Made by a program: the position numbers and the translations under genes. Under the pieces are notes generated by a model. The model was not told the origin of the DNA and searched no databases. It worked only from the letters and a program-made list of their open reading frames with translations. A DNA stretch of 64,000 bases, taken from NCBI GenBank assembly GCA_947169045.1, contig CAMVOC010000002.1:17762-81761 (forward strand), in the 5' to 3' direction. The stretch comes from an uncultured bacterium (GTDB lineage: Bacteria > Patescibacteriota > Gracilibacteria > Absconditabacterales > Absconditicoccaceae). Below are positions 1 through 64,000 of this stretch, one piece after another. Position 1 is the first letter of the stretch, and each line of letters starts with the position of its first letter.

Positions 1-2
1 CT

Positions 3-1004
3 ATCGGAGAACCTTCTACTCAGCTTACTCTCGACACCTTCCACTCTGGAGGAGTTGCTGGACAAGGAGAAATTGCAACAGGTATCGACAGAATTAAGCA
101 ACTTTTCGAGGTTAGACCTCCAAAGAATCCAGCTATCGTTGCGCCATTTGATGGAACGATTGACTTTGAAGAGACTCCAGAAGGAGGAAAATTCTGACTC
201 ATTAGAATTACTTCTGACATCCAAGAAAAAGAATACAAAATTAAGGATGGATACACCATAAAAGTCAAAGAAGGGCAAATGTTAGCAAAAGGAGCTACCT
301 ACGCCGCAAAAGCCAAAGCTACCAAAGCTACAAAGACTAAAGAGAAAGAAAAAGCTACAACAAAAGCTGAATCTCAACTCAAAGTGACAGAAACAGGAAA
401 AGTACTCAAAATCACGAAAGACAAAATGATTTTGGGAGTACAAGAAGTCTACTCAAAATCATTGTATGGACTCCTTCCAAAGAAAAACAGATCAGGAGAA
501 AAAGTGCTCAAAGGAGAAATTCTCACGACAGGTGCCTTGGATATTATGGAATACAAGAATATCGTTGGGGATTTACAAGCTCAAAGATATATCATTGCAG
601 AAGCAAAGAAAGTGTATGCAGAGCAAGGACAAGATCTCAACGACAAGCATATGGAAATCGTCGTAAAACAGCTCTTCTCAAAAGTGTTCATAGAAGACTC
701 TGGAGATTCAAGCTTCATTCCTGGAACTTACGTTAAATACGAAGATTTCATCAAAAAGAATCAAGAGCTTTCTCTCCAAAATAAGAACCCTGCAAAGGGA
801 AAAAGAATGGCTCTCGGATTGACAACAATTGCTAAAGAAACTGATTCTTGGCTTTCTGCTGCGTCATTCCAAGAAATGATTCGTGTAATGGTAGGAGCAT
901 CACTACGTGGAGCTATCGACAACCTCGCCGATCTTAAATCTAATGTAATCATCGGAAGATTACTTCCTATCGGAGAAAATTACAGAAATATGCACGGATA
1001 CTAG
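3..1004 (+). CDS. rpoC: DNA-directed RNA polymerase beta' subunit, C-terminal part (5' end lies outside the window)
   Basis: Frame 3 is open from the window edge. TFHSGGVAG and the C-terminal SWLSAASFQEMIRVMVGASLRGAIDNLADLKSNVIIGRLLP are typical RpoC. One in-frame TGA (195-197) is read as Gly. TAG stop at 1002-1004. Confidence 0.93.
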
Positions 1005-1063
1005 ACCTCTCTTTTGCAAAAAATGTAAGATTTCCAACCAAGATAAAACAGTATCAACGTAAA

Positions 1064-1098
1064 TAAAAAAACTGACTCCAAAAAAAGTCAGTTTTTTT
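1064..1098 (+). terminator. Rho-independent terminator after rpoC
   Basis: Stem ACTGACT (1071-1077) / AGTCAGT (1086-1092), followed by a T-run. Confidence 0.7.
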
Positions 1099-1163
1099 GC
1101 TTTTTTATCCTTTTTTACGTATAATTAAAAGGCAAAGATATTTTTACTTACACGAGCAAACAT

Positions 1164-2684
1164 ATGCCAAAAGATTTAGAGGTACTACCTAGCGAACAAA
1201 CGAAGATAGACCCTAATCTACTCAAAGATGATAATCCTACAATAGGAAAGAAACCGAGAGAAGAAGAAAGTACTACATTCATTAGCTCCTATGTAAGAGG
1301 TTTTGTTATTGGTTCAATTATTACCGTAATAAATATTTTACTCATTGGAGTAATTTTTTCCTATCACATTTATATTACACAAACGGTAAAAGTGCATGTA
1401 GACGATATGTTTGTAAATTTTGTACCAAAATATCAAGGATACCTCCATGATATCACCTCAATGCTAGGAATGAATAAAGAGGCACAATACCTCTCTCTTC
1501 CTATCACTTCCATGAAAGAAATCGGAAATCTCAATAGAATTATCTCAACCCCAGATCTAACCTACGCACAAAAAAAGCAAATACTGAGCGACAAAATCGC
1601 ACCAATCCCTAATGGAATTATGCAAACAATCAACGAAATCGAACAACTTAAGGGAGATATCGCAAAATATGGATTTTTACCTTTAGAAATTAGAGAAATA
1701 TTGGAAAATGAGCTAGCAATTTCATCTATCCAAAGGTCGTTAAATTCGCTAGAAATTATCAAATTTACCGCAGCCCTCAAAGTATTTTCATTTCAAGATA
1801 CCACAGCCACTCTCATTGGAAATATGATAAATATGGGAGGGAATGCTACAACTGAGTTATTAACCGAGTTAGCAAACAGAGGTGAAAAAGATGTAAACGC
1901 CTACGTAAATATGTGTTACCTAAACCCTTTTGAAACCGCACCAGAATGTGCCAACATTCAAGATGTAAACCACTTTTATCAATACATCCTCAAAGATGAC
2001 GATTTTAATATCGATTCTTTTAAATTGGTAATGGGAGCTATCGAAAAAGTGCTTGAGCAAAACGAAATTCCTTCTTTCTCTATCATTTTTAATAATTTTA
2101 ACGCACTACAACAATCCATCAATTTCAATGTAGAAATCAATACCACGCCAAGCGACGAACAAAGATTAGTTCTCAGAGGAATTCAGAATCCACAAGTATT
2201 CATTCTCACCAGTCTGATTAACCTACTGAAACAATCTATCTTTATCATCGGAACAGAAATTGATACGAAAACCCTAGATATCTCAAAAAGGAAAATTACA
2301 ATCGATAATATCAACTATATCGTCAACACTTCATCAAAACAATTTAACCTCCCTATCCAAAAAAATATGGAAAGAGAGATCTTTGATTACACTGATCTCA
2401 ATGAGCTTATCAGAGAAACATTAGAAGATGAAATCGCTAATTGAGAAGCACAAGAAGAATTGATTAACGATTTAACAAATGAAATCTTAGAGAATCAAAA
2501 TGCTGACAATCAACCTGAAGAAACCATAAATGAAGAAGAATCTACACCAGCACCAGACATAACAAATGAAGGATCCTCAACAAATCAAGAAATAAACGAA
2601 TCCAACCAACAAATAACTTGAGAAAACAGTACAGAATCAGAAACTCTAGAACCGAATACAAATAACGAAGAACAAGCATTTTAA
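1164..2684 (+). CDS. Hypothetical membrane-anchored protein (506 aa)
   Basis: ATG at 1164. Track ORF 1164..2444 continues through TGA at 2442 and 2619 to TAA at 2682-2684 (checked codon by codon). One N-terminal TM helix (FVIGSIITVINILLIGVIFSY) and an acidic Asn/Glu-rich tail. No domain recognised. Confidence 0.75.
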
Positions 2685-2702
2685 CTACTAATTCTTATCT
2701 CT

Positions 2703-4364
2703 ATGCCAACTACAACGCCAACAACACCTATCACCGAAGAGAAGAAAACTGACGAAAAAAAATCAGGTTTTTCTCTAGATATAAAGGCGTTACTAGCCAA
2801 AATAACAGGTAAAAAAGCTGATGCAGACAACGATAAAGGGAAGAACAAAAAACCTCAGCTTTCCTTACAACAAGTAATGACCAAAAAAAATTCCATCATT
2901 GTACAAGTAATTGCAGGAATTACATTTTTGGCAGCAGTAGGATTAGGATATTATACATACAATGAACATAACGAAATCAATGCTCAAGCCGCTAATCTTA
3001 ACCTCCTCAGTAATTTTTGAGACGTCTCTATAAATCAAGCGCAAATAACAGCATTTTGAGATTATATCCAAGACAATATCAGTAGTATTTCGCACCTCCT
3101 AGCAGTAAAAGACGCCGTTGAGGACAAACTTGAACCTTACCAAAAGCTCTTCGAGACACAATCTAGTTACTACAATTTATTTTTAAGAAATATCTATTTA
3201 CCAAGCCTTAATATCCGAAAAGATCCTTATACTCAAATTGTAGATACAAGCATCATCGGACAAAAATATCTAGAAAAAGATAAATTTCAAGACCTCTACC
3301 TCATTCAATACCGAAGTAATTTCTTTAGTAATGTAGGAGAAAACGCTGAATACAACGAAATTTCAGAAATTAATCTAGGGGAAATGGAAGATACCGATCC
3401 AGAACACTTCATCATCCCTGTAACTATCAAGTTTGTCTCACCAAATAAACGTTCTTTCTTACTTTTAGTAAATAAGCTATCCATCACTTCCAATATCACG
3501 AATGTATCTCTTCTCAACGAGTTTTTCTTTTATTTAGTGAAAAATATTGAAGAGCTCAAAGCCGACGAGATAAAAATCGAAAGAGAAAAATACATCGCGA
3601 AATATTTCCCTGACAAAATCAAAGATACAAAAATAACAGAAGAAGAAGAAACAGAAAGCTGATCATGAGAAGACGAGGATACTATCCCAGAGGAAACCAT
3701 CATCGGATATACACTTCGTGAACGAATGGAAGGAACCGGAGAGATTTCACTCCTCGACGCTGAAGTAATTAACGCAACAATTATCCAATCTACAAACTGC
3801 GAAACGTTAGATGCCTTATGTCTCTTTCGTTTTAGAGAAAAATATAGAGAATTGCCTTATCTAGCCTATACCATAGGAATGCCAATGAATCCAGGGCAAG
3901 AAGAAAATAGAGTAACATATTTCAAAGATTTTATCTCTTCTCTTGCTCCAATTATTGCAGTTAAAGCCTTTAATTTCGAGAAAGAAAAAAGTAACAGCAT
4001 TCTCGATACAAACGCACAAACCTACAGAGGATCTATCAGTTTCAACGTGTATGGAAGAAGCGTATCTGACAGTGATAGAGACGAAATCGCCCAAATCCTC
4101 GGAAATGAATGCTTTGGACGTAAAGGACAAGCAGAAAACGCACCAAGTATCAGTACAGAGGAAGCAATTCGTCGTGTAGAAGAAAATCTTATGAAAATCG
4201 GAGATAATCTTCAATCTAGTGATGTTGTTAATAATTTAGAAGAGCTCAAAAAGATTTTCGAGACAATACAAAGAGATTTCGGAAAAATGAATAATTATCA
4301 TAAAGTCATCAAAATCTTTGAAATCCATAGAATGCTCAAAAATGCCAACCTTTGTTACTCATAA
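2703..4364 (+). CDS. Hypothetical membrane-anchored protein (553 aa), possibly a PilO-like assembly component
   Basis: Track ORFs 2703..3020, 3384..3662 and 3726..4364 share one frame, joined by TGA at 3018, 3057, 3660 and 3666. No TAA/TAG in between. Lys-rich N-terminus followed by a TM helix (IIVQVIAGITFLAAVGLGYY). Confidence 0.75.
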
Positions 4365-4819: not shown

Positions 4820-7108
4820 CTACTTCTTTTTCACTCCAATAATCTCTAAAACATCCGCTAATTTCAAATCGCTAGCATCTTTTCAACCTTTTGGAATCTT
4901 ATAATTTTTCTTACCATATTTCACATAAGGTCCATAAGGTCAATTGAGAACCTGAATAGTCTCTTTTTTGTAAGTAAATTCATTAATATGTTTATTTGCT
5001 TCAGCTTTCTTTTTCTCCTCAATAAGCTGAATCGCCTGTTCATACGTAATAGATCGCAAATCAAATTCTGCATCCTTTTTGATGGAAGCAAAAAGATTAT
5101 TCCATTTTACATAAGATCCAAAACGACCCGAATTGGCCTGTACTGGTTTTCCTTCATACTCCCCCAATTCACGAGGCAACGAAAACGCCGACAAGGCATC
5201 CTCTAACGTAATAGTTTCAATATTCAATCCCGCAGGAATATTAGCAAATTTTTTCTCCTGATCATCTGCTGTTCCCATCTGTAACAACGGTCCATATGCC
5301 CCAATCCTTGCAATAATCGGCTTTCCAGTTTTAGGATCGGTTCCAATTTCTCTCTCAGTATTCATTCTCGCAATATCTACCGTCTGTTCTATCAAACCAT
5401 GAAAAGAAGAATAAAAATGCTGAATCATATCTTGCCATTTAAGCTTTCCTTCAGCGACTACATCAAATTCCTCTTCCACATTTGCAGTAAATTTATAATC
5501 CATAATCTCCGGAAAATACTTCACAAGGAAATCCGTGACTGCCATTCAAACATCAGTAGGAAACAGCTTTTTCTTTTCTGCTCCATAATTTTGCTTATGT
5601 TCAGAGGAAATAATATCCCCCTTCATCAAAGTAATTTCTCTAAAAATCCTCTGCTTTCATGGGCGATCCTCCAGTACCACATATCACCTCTTTTGAATAG
5701 TAGAAATAATCGAAACATACGTCGAAGGACGACCAATTCCCTTATTTTCCAACTCTTTTACGAGACTTGCTTCCGTATAACGAGGCTTGTGATTAGAAAA
5801 TTTCTCCGTAGCAACAATCTTATCAGCAAATAAAGATTCTCCAGTCTCCAATTTCGGCAACATACCCTTTGTCAACTCGTCCTCTGGTTCTTCATCGCTA
5901 CTTTCAAAATATAATTTCAAAAATCCATCAAATTTCACCACCTCACCTTCTGCCTTAAACAAACGCTTATCCTCACTCGAAGCTATTTTCACAAGGGTTT
6001 TTTCAATTTCTGCAGGGGACATCTGGCTCGCAACCGTCCTTTTCCAAATCAATTCATACAGTTTTTTTTCATTAGCATCCGTTCACGCACTACGATGCTC
6101 AAAATGTGTCGGTCTAATACATTCATGAGCTTCCTGTGCACCTTTAGATTTTGTCGTATAATGAGTAGGTTTAGAGTATTCTTTCCCGTACTCTTTGATA
6201 ATTTCCTCCTGGGCCGCTTTAATAGCAAAATCAGAGAGATTTACACTATCCGTCCTCATATAGGTAATCAATCCCGCTTCATAGAGTTTTTGAGCAACTT
6301 GCATCGTCCTCGCCACAGGGAAACCTAATTTACGAGAAGCCTCCTGTTGTAAGGTAGAAGTAGTAAAAGGCGCAGAAGGAGACTTTTTACCTGGATTTAC
6401 CTCCAAAGAAGAGACAGAAAAATCTGAATGTTTCAAAGTTTCAAAGAGTTTTTCAACATCTTCTGGCGTTTTAAGTTCCTTTTCCAATGTCGCAGAAAAA
6501 GGTTTTTTAGCAGCTCCAATGAAAGTCCCAACTACTTTAAACGAACTTACTGCTTCATGTTTCTGAATCTCTCTTTCACGATCAACAAGTAAACGCACCG
6601 CAACAGACTGAACACGACCAGCAGAAAGTCAGGTTTTTATCTTTTTCCAAAGTACAGGAGAAAGCTCAAATCCCACCAAACGATCAAGCACACGACGAGC
6701 CTGTTGAGCATCTACCAAATTCATATCTATCGTCCTTGGATTTTCCACCGAATGTTTAATCGCCTTTTCCGTAATTTCATGAAAAACGATTCTCGGAGTA
6801 GTCTTAATATCCAATCCTAATTGATTAGCTACATGCCACCCAATAGCTTCCCCTTCACGATCCTCATCGGTTGCAATCCATACTTTTGCACCTTTAGCAA
6901 GTTTTTTCAAATCAGCAATAACTTTCTTTTTTTCAGGAGAAACCACATATTCAGGGATAAATCCATGTTCAATATCCACTCCCATACCTTTAGTTGGAAG
7001 GTCTACTACATGACCATAAGACGCTTGCACTTCATAATTATTCCCAAGAAACTTTTTAATCGTTTTAGATTTCGCAGGAGACTCTACAATTACAAGATTA
7101 TCCGCCAT
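4820..7108 (-). CDS. topA: DNA topoisomerase I
   Basis: Track ORFs 4940..5545, 5684..6052, 6083..6598 and 6629..7108 share one frame and are separated only by TGA. Motifs: [35 protein letters not shown]. Reading through TGA 4940 adds [19 protein letters not shown] up to TAG at 4820-4822. Confidence 0.95.
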
Positions 7109-7187: not shown

Positions 7188-8882
7188 TTATTGGATCAAT
7201 TTAGAAGGATAATTTTGATTGATAACAACCAATGATGAACTATAGAAACTTGGATCATCTACGCTATTACAAGGCGTTCCATCTAATCCTTTCCTTGAAG
7301 AAGATCCTTTATGTCCTCTTTCACATTGCCAAGTAAAAATTTCCTGCAAAGAAACCTGACTTCCAGACAACTCTGCTCAATTATACCTAATACCCAAATT
7401 ATTCACTTGATTAACCCTCATCATCGTTAAATCATCTATCGCATCCTCAATAGAATTCAACGAAGTAAACTTTCCATGAATAAAGAGTTTATGAGGAACT
7501 TTTACTCCAGAATATCAGCTTCACCACAAAAGTCCGTTAACAATAAATGTTCCCTTCAAAAACGTTCCACTAGAAACTCACGAGAAAACTGAAGGATTTC
7601 CTTGAACATCAAAAGAATGTAGTCCATACGTAAAGGATGATTGTTCCAAAACAAGATTTCCTTTATCAATAAAAACATCCAAAGGTCACCTATTCGACGA
7701 ACGAGCAAGATACTCTTCAGAAATAACTACATTTACTCCACTGACAATCAACGTCTTGCCTTCATAATTAGAAGCATTAGCAGTAGTAATCCTAACATCT
7801 GGGAATGTTCTATCGACACACTCTATTCCATCTCTGGAAGTATTCCACTTATCACGACAAAGTTCAGTTGCTCTCTGCCTTGCTGCATTAATCAATGTCG
7901 CATTATTAACATTCAAAGTAGAAAACAATTGAGATCTAGAATCCTTATCCAAAGAAGCACCTTGACGAACGATTCCCACAATTCCTAAAATTCTAATCAA
8001 CCATGAAAAATCCGCCCCTTGGAAAAGAGCTCCCACCTTACACTCCAATTTACCTGACAATGCTCAAGTTCCAACAAGCAAATCTACATCAGGATTATAT
8101 TGCTCATCATAGGCAGGATTTGGAGCAATAACATCTTGCACCCCCTCATTAAAAGCTGAAATAACATCCATAATATCACCTGGATCTCCCGTCTCTTTAG
8201 GTCGACACCCCACAAACCCAATTCCTCATACGGAATGATCATACATCAACCCCACAGGGAATTGCATTCACGGATACTCTGGAAATTCCAGACGCATTAA
8301 AGAGAGCGAAAGAGACGAATCAGCAATTGGTTCATTAGTCCCTCACGTAACAAAAGTCCCCGTATATTGCACTCCTGCAGAAAGAGCATAATCTACTCCA
8401 CTATAGGTATGATGCACATAGGAATATAAAGCATTTTCTTCATAATCACTCGGATTATACAATGAAAAACAATTGGTATATACTGCAGACTCAGGATCAA
8501 ACTCCAAATCAGGATCTCCTGCAAAATACGTTTCATACGTACCCGTATCTAATGGCCAAAGTCTTTCACCTCTTCCTTCAGAATAATAAAATCCCCTCAA
8601 TTGAATACCACAAAGTTTTGAAACATTTCAACCCGTAATAACCGGGTAATCAGAAGGAGCAAAAGAAATACTATCAGTTTCTAAATCTCTAAACAAAAAA
8701 GCTCCAGGATAATAATTTCCTGCAACCTTAAAAGCAATTGGAGAGAACATATTTGCCCAAACAGTAGAATCCAATCCATCAGGGAAAATCTCACTATTCA
8801 ACGTAAAAGACAAACCTGCAGAGCTTACCGCACTAAACACAAAGAAGTAGCCAAGAAGCAAGAGAAAAGAAATTTTACGCAT
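7188..8882 (-). CDS. Hypothetical secreted protein (564 aa)
   Basis: Track ORFs 7188..7370, 7686..8060, 8343..8600 and 8628..8882 share one frame. The gaps contain only TGA (checked). Signal peptide MRKISFLLLLGYFFVFSAVSSA. TAA stop at 7188-7190. Confidence 0.8.
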
Positions 8883-9240: not shown

Positions 9241-10143
9241 ATGATTCTCCTCATCACGTGTATTCTTTGACTCATATTCGGATCCTTCGGTTCCGTTATT
9301 TTTTTTAGACTCGGAGATCTCCCTAACCGGAAAGTCCTTAAATCTTTCCTCATTGGACGTTCCGAATGCCAATACTGTCACCATACGCTCCATCGGAAAG
9401 ACCTTTTCCCTATCGTAAGTTTTGCAGTACAGAGAGGAAAATGTCGCTATTGTAAAGGAAAACTTTCTCGACGATATCCCGCTATTGAACTCTGAAGTAT
9501 GCTCATTTTTGTACTTATCCCTCTGATTGCCAACCACGGATCACTAGCAATTCCTACACAGCAACTAGGAATTATCGTTCTTCTTACATTTTCACTCCGA
9601 TTAACGTTTCTCATTGCTCTATATGATTTTTACAGATATGAACTACATTCTACAGCAACCCTACTCTTATTTATACTTTCTTGCTGGTTAAATTATCAAG
9701 TCTCAACTCCTCTTCTCCTACGAATACAAAGCATAGGTCTTTTTTTTGGAATTTTCCTCGCAATTTACTTTGTATCCAAACTCCGAATTTATCTCAAATA
9801 CCACAAAAACTCTGAAGGTTTCGGATTTTGAGATGTGCTATTTACCGGTATCATCGGAAGTTTCTTCCCCGTATTTTTCACCGACCTTGAATCACGAGAT
9901 TGAGCAATCATTTTATGCCTTTTCGTCATCATTTCATGCATTATCGGAATACTTATCTATGCTCTCTCATTTGTCAAGTTTTTCAAGCAACATCTCATCA
10001 AATCACAAAAAAAATCTGACCTTCCCATCACAAAAATAGTAAAAACAACGCCTATTCCATTCATTCCAGCAATGGCTATCAGCTTTTTATTACTTCTCAT
10101 CTGCAGAAATTACCTCTTGACTTTGATGAAATTTTATTTATAA
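9241..10143 (+). CDS. pilD: Prepilin peptidase / N-methyltransferase (A24 family)
   Basis: ATG at 9241. N-terminus GLIFGSFGSVIFFRL. Zn-finger pairs CQYC and CRYC. YPAIEL. Catalytic GFGF-[TGA=G]-DV at 9829-9831. Continues through TGA at 9829 and 9901 to TAA at 10141-10143. Track ORF 9499..9831 is an internal fragment. Confidence 0.9.
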
Positions 10144-14747: not shown

Positions 14748-14857
14748 CGACCTATCTTGCAACCTAAAATTTTCCAAAAAATCCCTAGTATTTACCTCGA
14801 AAAACAATATACTATCAAGAAATCCAGTTTTTTATTCTCTTTTTTTTGAAAAAACGT

Positions 14858-16996
14858 ATGGCAACTTCAAGACATCAATTTACTGAGGTTCAGCAAACTT
14901 TTGACCGAGCAGGGAAAAAAATCTGATTCGACCAAGGAAAACTCGCAATGCAAGCGGATGCTTCTATTACCGTTGCGTTTGAAGATACTGCAGTACTATT
15001 TTCTACAGTAGTAGCAAAAGAACCTAAAAGTCTCGACCAAGACTTTCTTCCACTCATGGTAGACATCAGAGAAAGCTTTTCAGCAGCAGGAAGAATTGGA
15101 GGAGCTGCATATCGCAGACGCGAAGGTCGCCCTTCAGATCAGGCAATTCTCAATGCCAGACTTACTGATAGAGCCATCAGACCAATGTTCCCAAAAGGAA
15201 TGATTAATGACGTAGTAATTACCGCAACGCCTATGGCATTAGATCCTAGGTATCCTCTAGGAGTAAGTTGTATCATTGGATCAAGTATTTCCGTAATGGC
15301 TTCCGGATTACCTTTCGACGGGCCAGTAGGAGCCGCTCAAATTGCTTATGTAGACGGAGAATTTATCGTAAATCCAACACATGAACAGTTAGACAAAGCT
15401 GAATTAAACCTTTTGGTAGCTGGTAAAAAAGATTCAATCAATATGATTGAAGACGAAAGCAATGAAGTTCCTCCTGAATTAATGAAAAAAGCTTTTGAGC
15501 TCGGACAAGCAGAAATCAATCGCTGTTGCGAATTCCAATTAGAATATCTCAAGCAACTGAATATCACTCCAAAAGAAGTTGTTTTCAATAAACCTTCTCC
15601 AGAACTTGAAGAAACAATACGTACATATCTGGGAGAAGATAAACTCGAAGCAATGATGGGAAATGCAAAAGTCAGCTTTAATGACTTATATTACGTATAT
15701 GAAAAGGATCTTCTAGAACACTTCAAAGCAGAAATCGAAGACGAAGAAAATCTAGAATTTTCTGTTTCCAAAGTCAAAATGGCATTTTTCAATACGACAA
15801 AATATTTTATCAGAGGAAGAACGCTAAATACCGGAAAAAGAGTAGACAATAGGACACAACTAGACATTCGTCCTCTGTACTGCGAAGCTGGACTCTTCGA
15901 AAGAACACACGGTACTGGTTTATTTTGGAGAGGTGATACCCAAGTACTTTCTACCGTTACCTTAGGAGGACCAACTGAATACCTCATCCTTGACGATATG
16001 GAAAACGACGACATAAAACAAAGATACATTCATCACTACAATTTCCCTCCATTCTCTACAGGAGAAGCAAAAGCTATGAGAGGGACAGGAAGAAGAGAAA
16101 TCTGACACGGAAGATTGGCAGAAAAAGCACTCGAAAGAATGATTCCAGAAAAATCTGTATTCCCTTACACCATCAGAGTAGTTTCAGAATGTCTTAGTTC
16201 TGGAGGTTCTACATCAATGGGATCTGTATGTGGATCTACACTTTCTCTCATGGACGCTGGAGTACCAATCAAAAAACCCGTTGCAGGAATTGCTATGGGA
16301 CTATTCACTGAGCATGATGAAGCAGGAAATATCAGTAAACACCTCGTACTCAACGACCTTATGGGGACTGAGGATTTCATTGGAGATATGGATTTTAAAG
16401 TAGCAGGAACGAGAGATGGAATCACTGCAATCCAACTCGACACGAAACTTAAAGGAATTCCGCTTTCTATCGTATTTGAAACGATTGACCAAGCATTTGG
16501 AGGATACAACGAAATTATGGACGTAATGCTAGAAGCGCTTCCTGCAGCCAGACCTCAAGTAGGAAAATACGCACCAAAAATTGAAGTATTCACCATCAAT
16601 CCTGAGAAAATCAAGGAAGTAATCGGTAAATGATGAGATATCATCAATAAAATCATCGAAGAAAACGACAACATTAAAATAGACTTTGAAGAAGACGGAA
16701 CCTGCTATCTTACGCATCAAAACAAAGAAGTAATTGATAGAGTAAAAGCAATTATTCTAGAAATCGCAACAGATTTAGAAGTCTGACAAGAATTCGAAGG
16801 AGAAATCAGCAGAATAGAAGATTCTTACATGTTTATCCGCCTTCCAAAAGGAAAATCAGGATTCTTACACGTAACCAACCTCTTAAATAGGACTTCTTGA
16901 CCACTAACTAACTCATTCAAAATAGGTCAAAAGCTGAAAGTTATAATCTCTAAGATTGACGCAACAGGAAAAATAGCAGTAAAACAAATCGGATAA
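14858..16996 (+). CDS. pnp: Polyribonucleotide nucleotidyltransferase (PNPase)
   Basis: Track ORFs 14948..16105 and 16115..16633 share one frame. GRREI-[TGA]-HGRLAEKAL (16103-16105) matches the invariant REIGHG. The KH motif VIGK-[TGA][TGA]-D corresponds to GKGG (16631-16636). S1 domain, then TAA at 16994-16996. Confidence 0.96.
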
Positions 16997-18846: not shown

Positions 18847-20079
<1,233 letters not shown>

Positions 20080-20200
20080 ACATACGACAAAAAAACATAA
20101 AAAGTTGACAAAAAAATAACGTTTATTACGAGAAATGCAAGAGAATTTACAAATTTTTCGCCTTGACTTCTTGAGGTATTCTTCGTACAATTCATACTAA

Positions 20201-20956
20201 ATGCACCATAAAAACAGCAATACAAAAAGCTGAAATCCTGCACCTTTAGCCTATAATCAAAATTCTTTATCCATGCATGTTTGAATTATCTTAGATGGGA
20301 ACCGCCGTCGAGCAAAACAGAGAAATCTTCCTAGCATCCAAGGGCATCTTGCCGGAGCAGAAAGACTCGAAAGTACCATCAAATACGGCTTCGAAAAAGG
20401 CATAGACATTATCACCGTCTACGGCTTCTCGACTGAAAATCGAAACAGAGACCCTTCAGAAGTCGAAGGGCTTATGAAAATCTTTCTCGATTATCTCAGC
20501 GCGATGATTCCCAGATTGGAAAATCAAGAAATCAAAGTTAATATTCTAGGGGACAAATCAGCTTTTTCTCCTGATTTACAGCACATTATGCAGCAATTAG
20601 AAGATTCAACAGCAAAAAAAAGCTGACATATTTTCAATCTTTGCCTCAATTACGGAGGAAGAACAGAATTACTCCAAGCAATGCAACGCCTCGCCAACGA
20701 AGTCCAAAAAGGAAACCTACAACCCACCGACATCAATGAGACACTGATCTCAAACTATCTGTACACCAAAGGACAACCTGATCCCGACCTAATCATCAGA
20801 ACCAGCGGAGAAAATAGACTTTCAGGATTTTTAACGTGGCAATCAACATATGCAGAGCTCATCTTTACAAAAACGCTTCGACCCGATTTTTCAGAAGAAG
20901 TATTCGATGAATGTTTAACAGAATACGAAAAAAGACACAGAAGATTCGGAAAATAA
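20201..20956 (+). CDS. uppS: Undecaprenyl diphosphate synthase (cis-prenyltransferase)
   Basis: HV-G-IILDGNRR, YGFSTEN, LNYGGR, RTSGENRLSGFLTWQSTYAELIF, RRFG. The three canonical Trp positions are CGA codons. Start is ATG 20201 (alternative ATG at 20273). Confidence 0.9.
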
Positions 20957-26281: not shown

Positions 26282-26331
26282 CATATACTACTATGGAATA
26301 ATAAAAAGATTTCAATGATACAACATCTCAC

Positions 26332-38085: not shown

Positions 38086-38091
38086 ATTTTT

Positions 38092-38127
38092 GAAATTCTC
38101 CGAATTAAGGGGAACTTCTATTTTTTT
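38092..38127 (+). terminator. Rho-independent terminator after the MATE gene
   Basis: Stem GAAATTCTCC / GGGGAACTTC (8 of 10 paired) followed by T7. Confidence 0.6.
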
Positions 38128-38198
38128 AAAAAAGCAATAAAAGATCTATTTTATAATATCTTACTTGATTTTTTAATAAAGATTTCTATTATGAAATC

Positions 38199-38349
38199 GC
38201 AGATAATCAAGTAAAAAAGTATTTGGTCAAACCAAACGCTATTTTTTAACCAAGAAATTAAGCATCCTATTGATGGTTAATCTTGGTTGAGAGAAACTCG
38301 TTTTTGATCAAATACTTGATTATCTGCACCCATCATTAGGGTGCTTTTT
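38199..38349 (+). ncRNA. Candidate structured RNA / attenuator: long imperfect hairpin plus intrinsic terminator
   Basis: Perfect 15-nt arms GCAGATAATCAAGTA (38199-38213) and TACTTGATTATCTGC (38313-38327). The pairing extends through GTATTTGGTCAAA / TTTGATCAAATAC. Inner hairpin TTAACCAAGA / TCTTGGTTGA. Then GCACCC-ATCATTA-GGGTGC-TTTTT (38326-38349). Confidence 0.45.
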
Positions 38350-38364
38350 ATAACACAAAAAGTC

Positions 38365-38393
38365 CTTAATGCTTTTACATCACAAGCATTAAG
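38365..38393 (+). promoter_or_regulatory. Hairpin ending 1 nt before the methyltransferase start codon
   Basis: Perfect 10-bp stem CTTAATGCTT (38365-38374) / AAGCATTAAG (38384-38393). ATG at 38395. Confidence 0.5.
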
Positions 38394-38394
38394 C

Positions 38395-44376: not shown

Positions 44377-45529
44377 TTCTCAATTTTTCATATAAAGCAT
44401 AAAAAGGAGACAAGAGTTTGCTTGCATCATCTCTCAGTCGTAGCAACGCCTCTTGATACCAAGCTAAACCAACATGGACAGGATAAGAAGCCGAGAATTC
44501 CTGCCATTCACGCAAAGCTGTTTGTAACGCCTGTTTTAATTCTTGCCTTTGTTGTTGCATCACACTCAATTCTAAAGCATATTGATCTGCAAGAGTTTTA
44601 TCTGTATCCTCTTTAGATATCGCCTTAGACTCTGCCTGTGTAGCCAGCCATTGTGTGTACACATCTACAAATACACTATAAACCAGATATTCATTCGTAA
44701 TAAAAGAAACAAAATCCTGATCCATTTTCCCTGCTCATGTTCCAATCCAATTAGGAAGAGGATAATTAGCATTTTGCGTCTCTTGAGGGACTTTAAGTTT
44801 TTTAACCTTTTCCAGACGTTCCTTCATCTCTTCCTGATTATCAGTCAACATCTCTTTAGTATCTTCATACAGTTCTGAAACACCATAGAGCTTAGAATCG
44901 ATCGGCACCGAAAAATACGTTTTAAAGAAATCCTTGAACCTCGTATCTTCATCCGGAAAATTCTTTGGATCTAACACGTCCAAACTACTCGCCCATTTTA
45001 TAACAAAAACTTCATTCATCAAAACAGTAAAAATATTTCAAGCAAGATGAGCGACATCGCAATTATTCGTTTGTTCTCCAACCTTACACGAATCTTTTTT
45101 TTGAAAAGCAATAAAATCCCAAGCCTCCTCAGTGAACGAATCAAACCAGGATTTCTCTTTTCGCTCCCAGTCTTCTCGAAACTTATCCTGAAACAACAAA
45201 CCTACACCATCAACCTCCTCTCCCCACCGAGACGTACATAACGCCAAAACAAATAAAGAGTTTTTGAAATCCCAACGAGCATTTTCTCCTGAAAACACAA
45301 GAGCATTTTCTTCTGAAAGAGCTCCACTACAATACTTAGATACAAAGTCTTTTTTTGAGCTAGTAGTAGAAAGAGAACTATACACATTCCCCAATTGCGT
45401 CGCAAACCCTGGCCCCTCTTCTGCAAAAACACTGCCTCAAATAAAGCAAAAAGAAAATAATATCGCTACCACACACATCAAAAAACCACCTAGCACCTTT
45501 CATCATGTAGAAGGAAACGTAGTCCTCAT
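44357..45529 (-). CDS. Hypothetical secreted protein B (about 390 aa)
   Basis: Track ORFs 45038..45394, 44735..45022 and 44357..44725 share one frame. The upstream extension gives MRTTFPSTGGKVLGGFLMCVVAILFSFCFIGGSVFA, a signal peptide. The start could instead be ATG 45566-45568. Overlaps gene C by 20 nt. Confidence 0.72.
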
Positions 45530-45597
45530 AGCAACAAATCTGTGATAAAATAAATTTTTATAGTTCATAACCGATAATCAAATAAATAAAGGGTATA

Positions 45598-47190
45598 TTA
45601 ACATTTCACATTACAAGCATCATTTCACTTATTACTAGCCTGATACTTACAAATCTCTACCAGCTTTTGACACATACCAGACTGTTTGTTTTTGATTAAC
45701 TCATCAAGCTGATGTATCTGATCTACTATCGCATGGAAAAGCGGAGTTTGTACCGAGGTATCCACTGCTATACTCATTTCTTTCGTCTGACGAGCCAATT
45801 CATCCGCATCATTCACAGAGACAATGAGTTGTTGCTGTAAACCGTCTTTAAAATCTTTCGAATATTCTATACCAAACTGTTGTAGATACTGACGTCTCTC
45901 TTCAGGAGACAACTGACTAAACAATACATCTGCTCATTTAACATCATTATTCATCTCTCTCAAGAAATTCCATCAATCTTCTACACCAGCGATAAATTCA
46001 CTAATTCCAGACGACGAAGTCTCAACGACAGAAGAAACTCTTTTTTTAGTATCATTTCGAGCCTTTTTCCAGCCTCACAAAGGAGTAATTAACGATCTCA
46101 AACCTCCAAGCTCACGAGTTGTCATTTGTGTTGTATCGATTCCATATACTGTTCTTAATTGTTGTAACTCTACATCTGTAAAATACACATTTCCACCCAA
46201 AAATCCTAAAGGTCAAAGCGTATCCCACCCAAGTTCTCATCTCTTACCTCACAAAATCGCATACATCAATCTCTTCGTCGCAGAACTAATCGTCTGCCAA
46301 GACTTAGTTGCAGCAGTTCAAATCTGAGAAATCTTTCCTAAATCTCTCAAGGTTTGCTTTCGAAAATTATTACAAGACTGATACAATCCCAGCGTACTAA
46401 GACCTCCCCATAAGAAACTATAATCATCATCAATTTGTTGTATCCATTCAGGATCAAATCCCGCATTAAATAACGCATTAAAATCTCATTTCAAAACATA
46501 ACTTCCACCCCAAGTAACAAACTTTTTCATAGAAGCGTTCATCCTAATCAATGCGGACAAAATACCAAGATAAGACACATTATGAGTCTCTTGAACACCC
46601 GTAAATAAGCCCAAATCCTGATATTTCTTAACCACAGTATACAATTTTTCTGGATTTTCTAAGTTAGCCATGATACGCGTCTGTTTTCAGAGATAATAAG
46701 AAATCTGCATCAACTTAGTCTCTATCTCTAATAATGTCTTATAATCACGCACCATCGGCCTATCCTCAAAAAGTAGTCTAAGACCATCCAAATTACTCCC
46801 TATCACCGACAGAGCCGACAATCAAACGAGCACCGCAGTCGTAGTCGAGGACTGAAGAACTCTTAAAACGTTATTGTACAAAGTAGTTAAAATAACATCT
46901 ACAACAGCATTCTTAGTTTCTGGATGAAGATCCAAGACTTTTGAAGTAAAAAGCCCGAGAGGATTGACCGTTACATTAAACAGCTTCTCTCCCAAGACTC
47001 CACCAAGCAAAGTTTGAGCCATCTCTGCCTGAAAATCAAAATACAGTTGCATGGCAGGAGTAGGTCAATGACACACATCAGGAGCATCAGCACTGACATC
47101 TGCAGCATCAACAACAGAAAAAAAAGGCTGAATCAATCAACAGAACAAGACACACAATAAAAATACTGATTTTGTAAGAGATTTTTTCAT
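45598..47190 (-). CDS. Hypothetical secreted protein A (530 aa)
   Basis: ATG at 47188-47190, signal peptide MKKSLTKSVFLLCVLFC. Track ORFs 46822..47052, 46486..46671 and 45625..45924 are joined only by TGA (every gap codon checked). Cys-rich C-terminal tail. TAA at 45598-45600. Confidence 0.8.
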
Positions 47191-48444: not shown

Positions 48445-49806
48445 ATGAAACGACTTAGAATTCTACATCCTTTCTTTCATTTCCTCATTATTCTCTTCGT
48501 CTTTTTCCTGACGTACAAATTGAGACTTCGAGGAGATTTTTTCCGTGATGTCCCATTCATCAACATCCAAGAACTTCAGATTTTTGCGCTTTGTTCTGCC
48601 CTTATTTTCGTAACGCGAGGACGAATCAAAAAACTCTACCAACTCACAACCCTCTCCGAAACGACCATTAGAATCCTTCCAAAAGTACGAAGTTATCGAT
48701 TTATTTCTATGACATTTATTTCTTACTTCGGACAAGGGTTCTTATTTATGCGAGGAGTATCCAGATTTGTCATCATTTCTGCAGGAATTATCAGCTTTAT
48801 TTTACTGTTTTTCTTCGACCAATTACGAAATTTCATAGATTTTAAATTACAGCAAAAAGCAGGGAAAAAAATTCTGATTATCTCCAATAACCTCATAGAC
48901 AACGTAGAAATCCTCCAAACCATCAAGCAAAACTTCTCTTTCCCGACAGAATTTGCACAATATCAAGACATCGACAGTATCCAGCTTACCAATTACGCAA
49001 TCACCGTAGCTATAGGAACTTTTGAAAGAAACGATTTACAAGCCCTCTTCGAAAAAGTAAGATTCAACCCTACAAGATTTTTCCATATTTCAGAAGGGTA
49101 TTTCCTAGAAGACGTCGTCTACATCCCAGAGAAACTCGACAGTATCATCGCTATGGAGTACAAACATTCCAAATTAGACGGACGATCTCTCGTTATCAAA
49201 AGACTTTGCGACATTTTTGGATCCATCTTCGGAATTATTATTGGACTAATTCCTATGCTGATTATCGCAATACTTATCAAAATAGACAGTCCAGGACCAG
49301 TAATTTATTCTTCCAAAAGAGTTTGAAAAGGCGGAAAACTCTTCACGTTTTATAAATTCCGTACTATGTACACAGATTGCTGTACAGGAGTTGGAAATTC
49401 GAAGGCTGACAAGCTCTATCAAGACCTGATAAATTCCAGCAAAAATACCAGAGATAAAATTATGCCAAAAATCCAAAATGATCCAAGAGTAACCAAATTA
49501 GGAAGAATTTTACGTAAAACTTCTCTAGACGAACTGCCTCAATTATTTCAAGTATTAGTCGGTTCAATGTCTCTAGTAGGACCACGCCCTCATTTGCCAA
49601 ATGAAGTCGAAAAATACGAACCACGAATGAGGAGAGTATTGAGTATTAAACCAGGAATTACCGGATATGCACAGGTATTTGGAAGAGATAGCCTACCATT
49701 TGAAGAGGAAGCAAAACTCGATCTCCACTACATTCAGAATCGATCTATTTTTATGGATATTTACGTAATTTTTGCTACATTTTGAGTCGTATTCAAATGA
49801 AGATAA
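48445..49806 (+). CDS. Polyprenyl-phosphate sugar phosphotransferase (bacterial sugar transferase family, WbaP/EpsL-like)
   Basis: Several N-terminal TM helices. KFRTM, DELPQL, LVGPRP, KPGITGYAQV. Track ORFs 48445..49326 and 49366..49785 share one frame. TAA at 49804-49806. Confidence 0.9.
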
Positions 49807-50843
49807 ATGCGCACCTCGCTATCAAAGGAAAAAAAATACTAATTATCGGCAACCGAAGTTACAAAAACCTAGGTGATGAGCTGATTGTTTTATGAACAAC
49901 AAAAACGCTCCTACAACAAAAAGACCCAAAAGAATGCCCAGAAATTACCATCTCTTGTTTCAATCCTCAACGACTAAAAAAGTTCTTTTCACAGTTTTTC
50001 ACCACGAACGAACTGAGCAAAATTACATTCATTCATGAGCTCCCCAAAGGGGTAAGATCAGCCTTTTATTGGCTTAAAAATTGAGGAATCAAAGAGCTAA
50101 AACAATTCTGGCAAACAGATACAATCATCCTATGAGGAGGAGAGATCCTGACTGAAGAAAGTCCTAGTGCATATCGATATCGACTCGTCAGTATGCGACC
50201 ATTTTTAGTCGCTAAATGCTTCCACAAAAAAAAATATCTATACATTATGGGAGGCGTCCAAACTCCAGCAAGTCCACGCAAACTAAAACTTCTAAAATTC
50301 CTCCTAAATCGCACTACACACCTATATCTTCGTGACACCCAATCCGTCAACGAAATAAAAAAACTAGGCTACCAAAATGCTGAATTTTTCATGGATACGA
50401 GTTATTTTGCCTATGACTGGACTGAGAAGACACAGCAATCCACCAAAGACAAGTACATCATCGTAAACCTCAATAAAAACGGAGAACAGTTTATAGAAAG
50501 CCTCATCTCCGACATTTCTAAATATCTAAAACAAGGATACACTGTCTATTACGTCCCCGTTGCAAAAGGAGCAAATCAATATTACCAAGACATCCACTAC
50601 AAAAAAATACTAGAAAAAAAGCTGAATCATCATCTCGAAACACTAGATCGAGAGGAAGATTTCAACCATTTCGTACAACTACTTAAAGGAGCAGAAATCG
50701 TCATAAGTACGAGGCTACATTTATTTCTTATTGCTTCATTTCTTAGAATTCCGACAAAAGTATATCCATACCAAAAAAAGATTGTAAAGATGAAGGAGCT
50801 TATTTCATCCCTGCCAATATCCCGCTCCACAACCCTTGAATAA
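49797..50843 (+). CDS. Polysaccharide pyruvyl transferase (CsaB-like)
   Basis: ATG 49797 overlaps the upstream gene by 10 nt. ILIIGNRSYKNLGDELI, IL-G-GGEIL, STRLHLFLIA. Track ORF 50193..50843 is the C-terminal part. Confidence 0.75.
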
Positions 50844-51723
50844 TCTGCCATTTTCACTTTCCTCAGAATCTCAAAGCCTTCAGACTAAGCCACACAATAC
50901 ACCCAGGCAACCCTACCAAATAAAACTGCACTTTGTTCCAAAAAGTTGCATGTTTTTTTAAAAAGAAAAACCAATTTCTTGCTTTTTGACGAGCTTGTTC
51001 ATAAGTTCCAATCCACGCCTGTTGTAAAATGGTCTTCTCCCTTTCATAATGTCTCACTGGCAAATCCAAAAAAGAAAAAAATCTGACTCCTTTTTCTCGT
51101 AATGATAAGGTAAAATCTAAATCCTCTGCAATCCGCGCAATTTCTTCATCATATCCCATCTGTTTAAAAAGCTTTGCATCACCTAACAATCAATTCCCAC
51201 TAAACATGCGAATCTCACATGAGGAATGATTCTCAGCACGACAAACAATAGCTCTATTCTGCCAAAAATCCCACTTCAAAAAACCTCTATTTTGAATCTC
51301 TCAGGTCTCACGATACTGTAACGTCGAACAAATCACAACTTCAGTTCAGCATTCTTTTTTCTTTTGTTCATAATGCTCAACAGCTTGTTGTAAATAATCA
51401 GTATAAAAGCCATTATCATCATCAAAAAGCTGAATAAGTTTCCCATGTGCCTGCTTTATTCAAATATTTCTAACATAACTTGCTCATCAAGAATGTTTTC
51501 CTGCAAAAACCAAGTGAAAACGCCCAAAAAACTGTTTTTCCCACGTGTGTAATTTCGCATCTAAAGCATCCAGTATCGCATGCTCCTCCTGATCCACGAC
51601 CAATACTACCTCAAAATCTTGAAAAGTCTGTTGCTCCAAGCAACGAAAAATCCTCTCCAAATGCGGAATACTCGCCTCATTTCCTCTAGTTCCAAAAACG
51701 ACTGAAACTTGCATAATCCTCAA
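50800..51723 (-). CDS. Family 2 glycosyltransferase
   Basis: Track ORFs 51487..51723 and 50863..51189 share one frame (gap checked). SVVFGTRGNE, VVLVVDQEE, G-G-ASYVRNIG, FDDDN. Read-through of TGA at 50863 and 50854 reaches TAA at 50800-50802. Confidence 0.8.
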
Positions 51724-53585: not shown

Positions 53586-54238
53586 TATTTTTGCGTTTTA
53601 CTAGATAAAAAGGATTTAATTCATCAAACAATCACAGGAATCACTGAAATAAAAATGATTCACAAGACAACAAAAGTAAAATTTTTCTGAACCACTTCAA
53701 TATTCCCAAAGAAATATCCCACCCAAGTAAATAAAGACACTCGTACAAATCCTCCAACAAAATTATAAGCAATAAATTTTCTATATTTCATCTTTCCAAC
53801 CCCTGCTACAAAAGGAGCAAACGTACGAACAATAGGGACAAAACGAGCATAAATAATCGTCATAGCTCCATATTTATCATAAAAGGATTCCGTTTTTTCT
53901 AAATATTGAGGTTTAAAAATTCTTGGATATTTTTGAAAAGCTTTTTTTCAAAGAAATTTACCAATATGATAATTGGCAGTATCTCCCAAAATCGCAGCCG
54001 CACACAGCAATCCTCGTAAACAAAAAATATTTAAAGGGTTATCCAAAGCCGCGAAAGCCCCTGCAGCAAAAACAAGAGAATCTCATGGCAAAAAAGGCAT
54101 TACCACAACTCACGTCTCAATAAAAATAACCACAAATAAAATTCCATAGGTTAAAAGCCCATATTCAGAGATAAACTGACCAATATGCTGATCAATATGC
54201 AAGACAAAATCAATAAGGAACTTAATACCTTCCAACAT
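53585..54238 (-). CDS. dedA: DedA-family membrane protein
   Basis: [11 protein letters not shown]..., [33 protein letters not shown]. Track ORFs 54110..54298 and 53660..53863 share one frame (gap checked). TAA at 53585-53587. Confidence 0.88.
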
Positions 54239-60579: not shown

Positions 60580-61383
60580 ATGCCTACAGAACTTTCAGAA
60601 CAACAAACTCCTTCCTTCGAACAATTTGCCAACCGCGACGAAAGCGGGAATATCTTCCGATGGGCTTCAGATTTTTTGCTGATGCTCTGATATTCAGAAT
60701 TAAAAGAACAAAAAAAGCTGATCGACAAAACGATAAAAGCACTCCTCAACCTAGAGATAGACCTCTACGATAACCTCCAAAAAACAGAAAGCGGAGGCAG
60801 AATAGACTACAAAATGTCACGTTATGCCTGCTATCTCATGGCAATGAATGGGAACCCCAACATTCGCCAAGTAGCACTTGCACAAGATTATTTCGCACAG
60901 CAAACCAGAAAAACAGAATTACTCTCACAAGATCCAGATCGTCTCGCCATCAGAAACGAGATTTCCGAAGGAAACAAAACTCTCTCTAAAACAGTCGCTC
61001 GCCACGGAGTTTTTGATTATGGAAGATTTAATGTCGCAGGATACGAAGGAATGTACAATATGACAAACCAAGACCTAGCCGAACGCAGAAATATCAATAA
61101 AGAAAAGCTATTGGAATATATGGGACGTACCGAGCTTGCAGCCAATCTCTTCCGTATCACACAAACTGAAGAAAGAATTAAAAACCAAAACTTACATGGA
61201 CAAGCGCAACTTGAAGATGCACATCGCCAAGTAGGGAAAGAAGTGAGAGCTTTCGTGCAAATCAATACAGGAGACACTCCAGAAAATTTAAAAATTGAAA
61301 TGCCTCTCAACGAGATGAAAAGAGAGTTAAAAGACGCAAGGAAGGCACTAACAGATAACGAAGCTCCCACTGATTCGATTTAA
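60580..61383 (+). CDS. dinD: DNA damage-inducible protein D
   Basis: ATG at 60580. The N-terminus joins track ORF 60814..61383 across TGA. SRYACYLMAMNGNPNIRQVALAQDYFAQQTRKTELL closely matches the DinD core. Confidence 0.85.
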
Positions 61384-61507
61384 TCTTGATTTTCTGCAAA
61401 ACATCGATACAGTAATCTCAACCTACACAACGCAACAATCATTGCAAGGAAGCCTCAATCAAAACAACGTATTTTTTTGAGTTTTTACATGTTTCTCAGC
61501 ATCTTTG

Positions 61508-62719
61508 ATGAAAAAAATCAGACTTTTCCTAACTTTTTCTTTTTTTCTGGCTTCATGCATCCTTTTATCTGCATGTCAAAAGACCGAACTTACGGCTGAA
61601 GAACTGCAAAAATCTTTCCATCAAGCAAACCAATCACGACTAGAAAATATAACAAAAACCCTTACTCCATTCTCTACCGAACAAACTCCTACACTTCATT
61701 CCGTTTCCCAGACAATTTTTTCTTTTCCAGAAAGTTCACTCAAAGGAGGTGGAATACTCAATATCCAAAAAATCATTAGCAATCAGAAAGAAAAAGCTGA
61801 CATCACACTAGACGTAGATCGACAAAGTACTGACAAAAAAATAAACAAAGAAGAAAAGTCACTCTCTCTCGCAATAGAAACGCTTTCTGCAAACCAAAAC
61901 ATGTATGGTCAAATTCACGACTTTGACATTTTCCTTTGAGAAGGGAATTATCAAGCTATGACACTGAATCTTGTCCTTAAACAAATCAAAGACAAACGAA
62001 TCGATCTCTCTTCCAACCAAAGCATAGAGATCTCCATTTTCAATACCCCAAGATATGATGAAATTGCACAAATCATCACTTCACTCTTTTTCACGGATTT
62101 CTCTCCGCAGCGAAAGAAAACCAAAAACGATACCTACCGTTGAGAAATTCTCGAGCTCCCTACAACCTACACACTTCAAATGCAAGAAATTATGCGCCTG
62201 TTAGCACCTTTCGGCATCTATATTGACCAGTCAGAATTTGTTTGGGCTCCAGAGATGGACAATGAAATCTTACTTTCCCCAAAAGGAAAAGAAATCAGAC
62301 TAACATTCAAAAGTTACAATCAATTCATTCCTGTCACATTACTGCTCACAAAAGAGCAATTAGAAATACACATCAGTGTTGTCTCTTCTGAAGACGAAAC
62401 ATACCCAACATTATCCCTAACACTCAGCCCAAAAAATGCAAAGACCTATACCTTTACAGGAGAATTAAGAAAACTACATAATTCTCCAAAAGAACCTCCA
62501 GAACGGACAATTAACGGAAAATTCCAACTCGCAGAAAAAAATGGAATACTCAATACCACCTACAATATCTTAATGCAAATCACTTCGCTGGCTTTAGCAG
62601 ATGATCAAAAATTAAACATTGCCATCCAATGAACAGAGACACTCCAAGCTACTTGAGCAGACAATATCGATCTCAACGAGCCAACAGAAACTATCCCTTT
62701 AGACAATTTATTTAATTAA
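61508..62719 (+). CDS. Hypothetical lipoprotein (403 aa)
   Basis: Lipobox ILLSAC. Track ORFs 61505.., 61958.. and 62180.. share one frame, joined by TGA. TAA at 62717-62719. Confidence 0.75.
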
Positions 62720-62723
62720 ACCA

Positions 62724-64000
62724 ATGACAACAAACTTTTCAGCAAATACTTTAGGAACATCGTCAGAATCAAATACCCAGAATTCTGCACATACCATCCT
62801 AAAAGTCAGCTTTTTTATCCTGGGAGCCATGTTAGTGCTATTTTTTTCTGCAAGTATGGTTTCAGGATTCAAAGAAATCTGGACTTCTCTAAAAGAAAAA
62901 GGCATTGCAATCGTTACAAAAACAGTGGGGACTGAAATGAAAAAAGACGAAAACGGGAATGTTAACGTTCTACTCTTGTGATATGGAGGGAATGGACACG
63001 ATGGAGGGTTCTTGACGGATTCTATCATCATCGCAAGCCGAAACCCTGAAGTTGGAACGGTCTCTATGTTTAGCATTCCAAGAGATCTCCGAGTAAAATA
63101 CACAACAGGAGGATACGGACGTATAAATGCCAGTTTCTATCTGCTCTTAAAACAAAATAACGATGATCGAGAACTCGCAACGAGTTGAGCAAGGGCTGAA
63201 TTCTGAAAAATGCTTGGATTAGATATTCCATATTATGCGACCATTGATTTCACCGCCTTTAAAGGACTAGTTGATGCTGTAGGAGGAATAGATATCGTCG
63301 TACCAGAAACCATTCACGACACAACATATCCAAATGATGCAAACAGATGATACATTACCTTCCATATCGACGCATGAGAACAGCATTTAGACGGTGCAAC
63401 AGCATTAAAATACGCTCGTTCCCGTCATTCAACATCAGACTTTTCTCGCTCTTTAAGACAGCAAATAATTCTTAAAGGAATAAAAGAAAAACTGGTTAAT
63501 TCAGGATTCTCTACTTCGACTGCATTAGAATTATATGATGTATATGCACAATACATAAAAACGAATATTGCTTCTCAAGAACTCCTTTGGGCTAGTCAAT
63601 TTATCAAAAACATTGGAGAATTCTCAAGCTTTGGATTTACTACAAACTGTAGCTTTCAAAACTTTCTCAGAATGGTACCAGCATGCTTTCTGTATTACCC
63701 AAGCAGAGAACTATTTTGAGGAGCAAGTGTAATGCTACCAATGGACGCAACACCAAAAGATATCCAACACTATGAAGATATGCAAAAGTTTACGCAATTC
63801 ATCACGAGCCATCCTCAAATGATCAAAGAAAAAACAAGTATCTCTGTCGTAAGCGCTATCGACAGCCAGCTTGCAAAAGACCACAGAATGGGAAATACAA
63901 AATTTAACGATCAACTAGCCGTAAAACTCAAAAGATATTGATTTAATGTGATAGACAGTATGATTCGAGCTGACCCTATGGAATATTCTACTGTTTCTGT
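62724..64000 (+). CDS. LytR-CpsA-Psr (LCP) family cell-wall polymer ligase (3' end lies outside the window)
   Basis: TM anchor. LLL-G-YGGNGHDGGFLTDSIIIAS, SIPRDL, RINASF, HLDGATALKYARSRH. Track ORFs 62724..62981 and 63732..63941 share one frame. Confidence 0.88.

Follow-up and report, generated by a model that had tools for sequence, protein, structure and literature searches.

Reading frames and in-frame TGA codons

We analyzed a stretch of 64,000 nucleotides, hereafter the window (contig CAMVOC010000002.1, positions 17,762 to 81,761), from the 873-kb genome assembly GCA_947169045.1 of an uncultured bacterium. The assembly comprises 13 contigs, here designated C1 to C13, and is 93.5% complete. 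The window carries pnp, topA, atpA, trpS, serS, obg and other genes interrupted by in-frame TGA codons, and the genome is almost certainly that of a member of the Absconditabacterales (candidate division SR1) that uses UGA as a regular codon for glycine. Two further codons, CGA and CGG, behave in it as tryptophan codons predicted to be read by Trp-like tRNAs.

With the standard code (NCBI table 11), the window appeared as a patchwork of short open reading frames (ORFs) in which genes lay in fragments, whereas with table 25 (SR1/Gracilibacteria) the same frames became single long ORFs. With TGA read as sense, a greedy, non-overlapping set of 58 ORFs spanned 92% of the window; in-frame TGA codons, 228 in total, were present in 45 of them. 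An earlier note on this DNA, written from the sequence alone, had described the named genes as same-frame ORFs parted only by TGA and had proposed that genes be called again with table 25; our results agreed with this description, and at all ten coordinates that it listed the gene in question reads TGA or TGATGA in frame. Off-frame TAA and TAG occurred at a rate of about 4% per codon, so a frame of 716 codons without either is not expected by chance. In the whole genome, which is small and has a low G+C content (GC, 0.36), ORFs of at least 100 amino acids covered 89.8% of the sequence with TGA as sense and 52.0% with TGA as stop. In-frame TGA codons numbered 3405 genome-wide, corresponding to 13.1 per 1000 codons and to 20% of all glycine codons. 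They were evenly spread across ORF deciles, with no pile-up at 3' ends and no excess in the last decile. The statement of the earlier note that all genes end with TAA or TAG follows by definition when TGA counts as sense; separate support comes from this even spread and from the lack of release factor 2 (RF2) described below.

Pfam matches supported the gene names pnp, topA, atpA, trpS, map, serS, uppS, ftsH, obg and comEC, as well as the D12 Dam-type methyltransferase, the DedA/VTT-domain protein and the prepilin peptidase (PilD). The genes with in-frame TGA codons that are considered here are the following (window coordinates):

14846-16996, plus strand: pnp (PNPase), six in-frame TGA codons, at 16103-16105 (REI-G-HG), 16631-16636 (KH GxxG) and in the S1 domain among others
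4820-7108, minus strand: topA, seven in-frame TGA codons, one of them at 6629-6631
34020-35549, plus strand: atpA (F1 alpha), four TGA codons, one of them at 34368-34370
25298-26284, minus strand: trpS, one TGA codon, at 26258-26260
38287-39258, plus strand: DpnM-like Dam (GATC-type D12) methyltransferase, 15 TGA codons against two GGN codons
53585-54298, minus strand: DedA/VTT-domain protein, six TGA codons, one of them at 54083-54085 (LP-G-D)
9241-10143, plus strand: PilD, four TGA codons, of which 9829-9831 precedes the Asp of a GxGD-like motif
18847-20190, minus strand: serS, five TGA codons
40637-42118, minus strand: obg, four TGA codons
17079-17873, minus strand: map (methionine aminopeptidase), three TGA codons
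30237-32135, plus strand: ftsH, one TGA codon against 49 GGN codons
58031-59599, minus strand: comEC (Competence domain), seven TGA codons

The amino acid assigned to TGA

Standard-code orthologues came from genomes of the same class but of different families, and TGA was masked as X in the alignments to avoid bias. In PNPase, four of the six TGA codons fell at glycines invariant in five solved structures (the REI-G-HG site, two KH sites and one S1 site), two fell at variable columns and none at a tryptophan. Glycine was also present at the REI-G-HG site in 12/12 standard-code orthologues, and the two KH positions, both glycine in 5/5 structures, were glycine in 9/12 and 12/12 orthologues. The TopA codon 6629-6631 was aligned with glycine in 9/9 orthologues. 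The Dam sites at 38425-38430, 38503-38505 and 38509-38511 correspond to the glycines of the GGK and FVGGGA motifs, and all four positions are glycine in both DpnM and Escherichia coli Dam. The window methyltransferase is closest to DpnM, in which nine of the 12 aligned TGA positions are glycine. In SerS, glycine was the commonest residue at all five columns (8/8, 6/8, 4/8, 5/8 and 4/8), and three of the four TGA codons of obg were glycine in 7/7 orthologues, the fourth lying in a variable or gapped region. The earlier note had placed TGA at invariant glycines, which is a slight overstatement for AtpA (glycine in 5/5 solved F1-alpha chains, lysine in the single F-type relative aligned), for TrpRS (glycine in 7/8 and alanine in 1/8 standard-code orthologues) and for DedA (glycine in the close standard-code orthologue and, of two distant paralogues, in one). 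For PilD the support is at the motif level: the Peptidase_A24 match passes with TGA read as glycine and is lost with TGA read as tryptophan, and a PDB search with PilD gave no match.

We then pooled the sites. Thirty TGA sites in eight window genes gave 92 cells against standard-code orthologues, comprising 88 residues and four gaps; 63 of the 88 residues were glycine and none was tryptophan. The earlier note had named tryptophan or gaps in place of glycine at these columns as the outcome that would speak against its claim. When all 64 codons were tallied in ten window genes, TGA aligned with glycine at a frequency of 0.56, and the other codons were standard except for CGA. A family-wide tally of topA and pnp, made on tblastn-anchored columns of about 20 recoded relatives, yielded 556 TGA cells with a glycine frequency of 0.62, on a par with the 0.56-0.64 of GGA, GGT, GGC and GGG; tryptophan accounted for 0.0% of the TGA cells.

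Codon exchange among relatives gave the same picture. In topA, the sum of TGA and GGN stayed at about 49-56 per gene while TGA varied from 2 to 43, and TGG ranged from 1 to 6 in full-length copies. The counterparts of window TGA codons in relatives were TGA in 31% and GGN in 46% of cases, and TGG was not among the eight commonest codons listed. Overall, three synonymous sets emerged, namely {TGA, GGN}, {TGG, CGA, CGG} and {CGT, CGC, AGA, AGG}. Reading TGA as tryptophan instead of glycine lowered the Pfam scores of eight proteins by a total of about 98 bits, of which Dam alone accounted for 39, and led to the loss of the KH match as well as that of Peptidase_A24. A count of Walker-A motifs in the genome's own proteins returned the expected glycine enrichment and was not informative for TGA.

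The earlier note had proposed searching the rest of the genome for a tRNA-Gly(UCA) and for the absence of prfB, the RF2 gene. ARAGORN detected a 74-nt tRNA with a UCA anticodon (C7:54068-54141), labelled "SeC" on the basis of its anticodon alone. Its cloverleaf is normal, the acceptor stem being 7 bp long, and a long extra arm is lacking. Its G1:C72, C2:G71, G3:C70 and U73 are those of bacterial tRNA-Gly, including the genome's tRNA-Gly(UCC), C35 is kept, and it is 63% identical to tRNA-Gly(UCC) versus 41% to tRNA-Trp. G1:C72, C2:G71, G3:C70 and U73 are the glycine-identity criteria used by Shulgina and Eddy (PMC8629427). In 17 relatives, the UCA anticodon and U73 are kept; a few acceptor-stem positions vary, most pairs remaining intact. 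A gene for a dimeric-type glycyl-tRNA synthetase (GlyRS) is present at C2:4907-6286. The sole class-I release factor is RF1 (prfA, C5:76858-77874), which scored 450 and 442 bits, above the prfA cut-offs, and carries a motif of the P-x-T type (PET). No prfB was found in the 93.5% complete assembly, the sole class-I factor reaching 266 bits against a prfB cut-off of 370. An intact RF2 gene without a tRNA(UCA), the combination that the earlier note had held to be contrary to its claim, is therefore not what this assembly contains. ARAGORN reported 34 tRNA genes in all, with tRNA-Gly(UCC) as the only conventional glycine tRNA; tRNAs for Ala, Val, Asn and Cys were not among them. The missing tRNAs probably reflect contig ends lost from the incomplete assembly.

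The distribution of these features was assessed in 31 genomes, 19 from the window's family and 12 from other families of the class:

In-frame TGA in topA: 19/19 in the window's family, 0/12 in other families
tRNA(UCA): 18/19 in the window's family, 0/12 in other families
prfB above cut-off: 0/19 in the window's family, 12/12 in other families

In-frame TGA, tRNA(UCA) and the loss of RF2 clearly go together in these genomes. The closest PNPase loci in named genomes belong to "Candidate division SR1 bacterium MS502-49" and to metagenome-assembled genomes (MAGs) of Candidatus Absconditabacteria/Absconditabacterales. Several public MAGs labelled "Candidatus Peribacteria" (loci L064, L070-L075, L077 and L079) also have pnp genes with in-frame TGA and cluster with SR1, and the label of these records looks wrong.

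The assignment of TGA to glycine, with tryptophan excluded, is supported by four independent lines: residue-level alignments, codon exchange, tRNA identity elements and release-factor content. In the proposed mechanism, GlyRS would charge tRNA(UCA) with glycine, and the absence of RF2 would leave no competing termination factor at UGA, so that every UGA would be decoded as glycine, while RF1 would be kept for termination at UAA and UAG. Several points weigh against this reading. The tRNA(UCA) has A36 in place of the glycine identity element C36; that GlyRS would charge it despite A36 is inferred from the remaining identity elements and from published work on SR1. At 93.5% completeness, the absence of RF2 from a single genome is not absolute, yet none of the 19 family genomes has prfB. 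Some 40% of the TGA sites lie at variable columns from which no residue can be inferred. The GFGF-x-D motif of PilD found no clean placement, since MAFFT and local alignments with six distant standard-code orthologues were ambiguous. Finally, the support for UGA as glycine in this genome is wholly at the level of sequence and not of protein.

A double meaning of TGA, as glycine in most genes and as stop in some, could arise from sequence context, or if the 6.5% of the genome that is unassembled held an RF2 gene. It would fit the incomplete assembly, the 13 of 58 window ORFs without TGA and the near avoidance of TGA in ftsH. We nevertheless consider it very unlikely, given that prfB is found in none of the 19 family genomes but in all 12 outside the family, and that the last ORF decile shows no excess of TGA. 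A screen for gene runs free of both TGA and CGR (CGA or CGG) returned a single short run, lying outside the window and made of four small consecutive ORFs (C10:14243-16765; 548 codons without TGA, CGA or CGG, where about 11 would be expected), and the window itself had no such run.

Tryptophan, the meaning of TGA in table 4, is more improbable still. This code is found in Mycoplasmatales and some insect endosymbionts, and it would account for a TGA that is clearly sense in a small, low-GC genome without RF2. The earlier note had ruled it out; the alignments refute it, and the codon exchange and the tRNA identity speak against tryptophan as well: none of the 92 cells at TGA, nor any measurable share of the topA and pnp cells (0.0%), is tryptophan; relatives exchange TGA with GGN and not with TGG; and the U73 and GCG acceptor stem of tRNA(UCA) differ from the A1:U72 and G73 of the genome's tRNA-Trp(CCA). 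In addition, Pfam scores fall with this assignment, and tryptophan would make up 1.95% of the proteome.

That TGA is a true stop, the fragments being pseudogenes or the codons sites of programmed read-through or selenocysteine insertion, draws on the "SeC" label of tRNA(UCA) and is refuted by the data, its probability being negligible: the 3405 in-frame TGA codons hit essential genes, reading through them lifts coding density from 52% to 90%, and relatives either keep TGA at these positions or have GGN there instead. For selenocysteine in particular, the aligned residues are glycine and not Cys or Sec, in-frame UGA is not rare, and a 74-nt tRNA that lacks a long extra arm and whose acceptor stem has 7 bp is unlike tRNA-Sec, which has a long arm and an 8-bp acceptor stem.

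CGA and CGG as tryptophan codons

The window contains 125 CGA and 18 CGG codons (143 in total), for example in uppS (20201-20956) and in the DedA gene. In the window's own genes, six CGA columns aligned with tryptophan at 0.42 and phenylalanine at 0.19, with no arginine, and no CGG fell in aligned columns. The family-wide tally of topA and pnp comprised 61 CGA and ten CGG cells, with tryptophan on top. Across these tallies, CGA and CGG aligned with tryptophan at 0.33-0.56 and otherwise with aromatic or hydrophobic residues, never mainly with arginine, and the other 61 codons were standard. At topA columns with invariant tryptophan among standard-code orthologues, TGG codons of this genome are matched by CGA or CGG in relatives; likewise, 25% of the counterparts of window TGG codons in relatives were CGA and 8% were CGG. 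Reading CGR as tryptophan raised Pfam scores by a net 27 bits, 21 of which came from UppS.

Two tRNAs could decode these codons. The genome encodes a tRNA(UCG) and a tRNA(CCG), located at C6:29982-30054 and C2:85844-85915, which are 59-62% identical to tRNA-Trp(CCA) versus 38-48% to the tRNA-Arg genes. Both have G73, A/G1:U72 and, as judged by eye, U at position 20, with no A20. A separate tRNA-Arg(GCG) is present and serves CGU and CGC. CGA is nearly as frequent as TGG genome-wide (64 versus 65 per 10,000 ORF codons). The genome thus reads CGA and CGG as tryptophan through the Trp-like tRNA(UCG) and tRNA(CCG), and its code is table 25 with two additional sense-codon changes. The idea that tryptophan codons shift from UGG to CGA/CGG to escape wobble by tRNA-Gly(UCA) found no support: the TGA share was negatively correlated with the CGR share (rho -0.44) over 38 loci from relatives, and both shares track GC.

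Both parts of this code are already known. UGA as glycine was published in 2013 (Campbell et al. 2013 and Rinke et al. 2013, as cited in PMC8629427), and the Absconditabacteria code, with UGA as glycine and CGA/CGG as tryptophan, was inferred with Codetta by Shulgina and Eddy (2021, eLife 10:e71402, PMC8629427); the window is one more clean example. The genome resembles table 25 organisms in having UGA as glycine, a tRNA(UCA) with glycine elements, RF1 but no RF2, and UAA and UAG as stops, as well as in its small size, its low GC and its relatives named SR1. It departs from table 25 in that CGA and CGG, which are arginine codons there, are Trp-like in this genome and its family. Table 25 is thus incomplete for this genome because CGA and CGG behave as tryptophan codons: the match to table 25 made in the earlier note stands for TGA as glycine and falls short of the whole code, given CGA and CGG at tryptophan columns and Trp-like tRNAs for them. 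All three reassignments of the Absconditabacteria code are seen here, together with its tRNA features (G73, A/G1:U72 and no A20 in tRNA(UCG)/tRNA(CCG), and tRNA-Arg(GCG)), and the GC of 0.36 lies inside the Absconditabacteria range of 0.26-0.38 (PMC8629427). CGA use, at 64 per 10,000 of all ORF codons in this genome, is higher than the value of under 37 per 10,000 quoted for the six species of PMC8629427, although the latter was measured on aligned Pfam columns and the two measures differ. With table 4, the genome shares a sense UGA, the loss of RF2 and a tRNA with a UCA anticodon, as in Mycoplasma and Spiroplasma, but its UGA is glycine and its tRNA(UCA) has glycine and not tryptophan identity elements.

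The main value of these results lies in annotation. The standard table loses or fragments half of the genome's coding sequence, and table 4 would turn every UGA into tryptophan. Table 25 recovers the right ORFs and still gives arginine at about 0.7% of codons (CGA and CGG), often at conserved tryptophan positions; in the window this affects the 143 CGA and CGG codons. Among the NCBI tables offered by the tools used here, numbered up to 33, none joins UGA as glycine with CGA/CGG as tryptophan. Gene callers and public records therefore keep mistranslating such genomes.

Uneven TGA use, low-GC islands and other window genes

The TGA share of glycine codons ranged in the genome from about 0-2% (ftsH and pilins) to 76-100% (low-GC islands), and at the gene level it was correlated with GC (r = -0.70). 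The same trend was observed in topA within one GTDB genus (loci L003-L032), where the share extended from 4% at a locus GC of 0.37 to 86% at a locus GC of 0.28; it tracks GC, and TGA is the main glycine codon of topA in the low-GC members of the genus. One such island lies in the window:

36754-40519, plus strand: low-GC island (GC about 0.30) with a MATE transporter, the DpnM-like Dam methyltransferase and a DUF6996/DUF6997/DUF7226 protein

The ratio of TGA to GGN was 15/22 (41% TGA) in the MATE gene, 15/2 (88%) in the Dam gene and 13/4 (76%) in the DUF gene, compared with 20% genome-wide, and TGA is the main glycine codon of this restriction-modification island. The DUF gene overlaps the 3' end of the methyltransferase gene, and its product is a probable restriction enzyme. 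Homologues of the Dam gene were present in only two of 30 relatives, at 42-53% identity, so no donor can be named. More low-GC islands are found outside the window (C1:15.8-33.3 kb, C7:14.4-29.2 kb and C4:83.6-86.8 kb), with a GC of 0.23-0.30 and TGA as 70-100% of glycine codons. We tentatively propose, at slightly less than an even chance, that the islands were acquired recently from low-GC members of SR1 or from phages of these donors, and that, with CGA at parity with UGG, the second reassignment has gone further here than in the six species already published. If the islands were acquired in this way, they would indicate a pool of mobile genes restricted to organisms of the same code and trackable by its TGA share.

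At the other extreme, the single TGA among the 50 glycine codons of ftsH is significantly low (P about 2e-4), and two tandem pilin-like genes with an N_methyl motif (28566-29177 and 29428-30111) contain no TGA, CGA or CGG. This pattern may reflect avoidance of reassigned codons in highly expressed genes.

With table 25, the large ORFs of 1388, 754, 530, 506, 553 and 564 amino acids located in 21120-25286, 42166-47190, 1164-4364 and 7188-8882 had no Pfam match. Other window genes encode a protein with a phage-tail-lysozyme domain (PF18013) and a 648-aa protein with an SLH domain (32156-33079 and 26332-28278), as well as a sugar transferase, a pyruvyl transferase and a GT2 protein (48445-51723), which together suggest a theme of cell envelope or S-layer anchoring.

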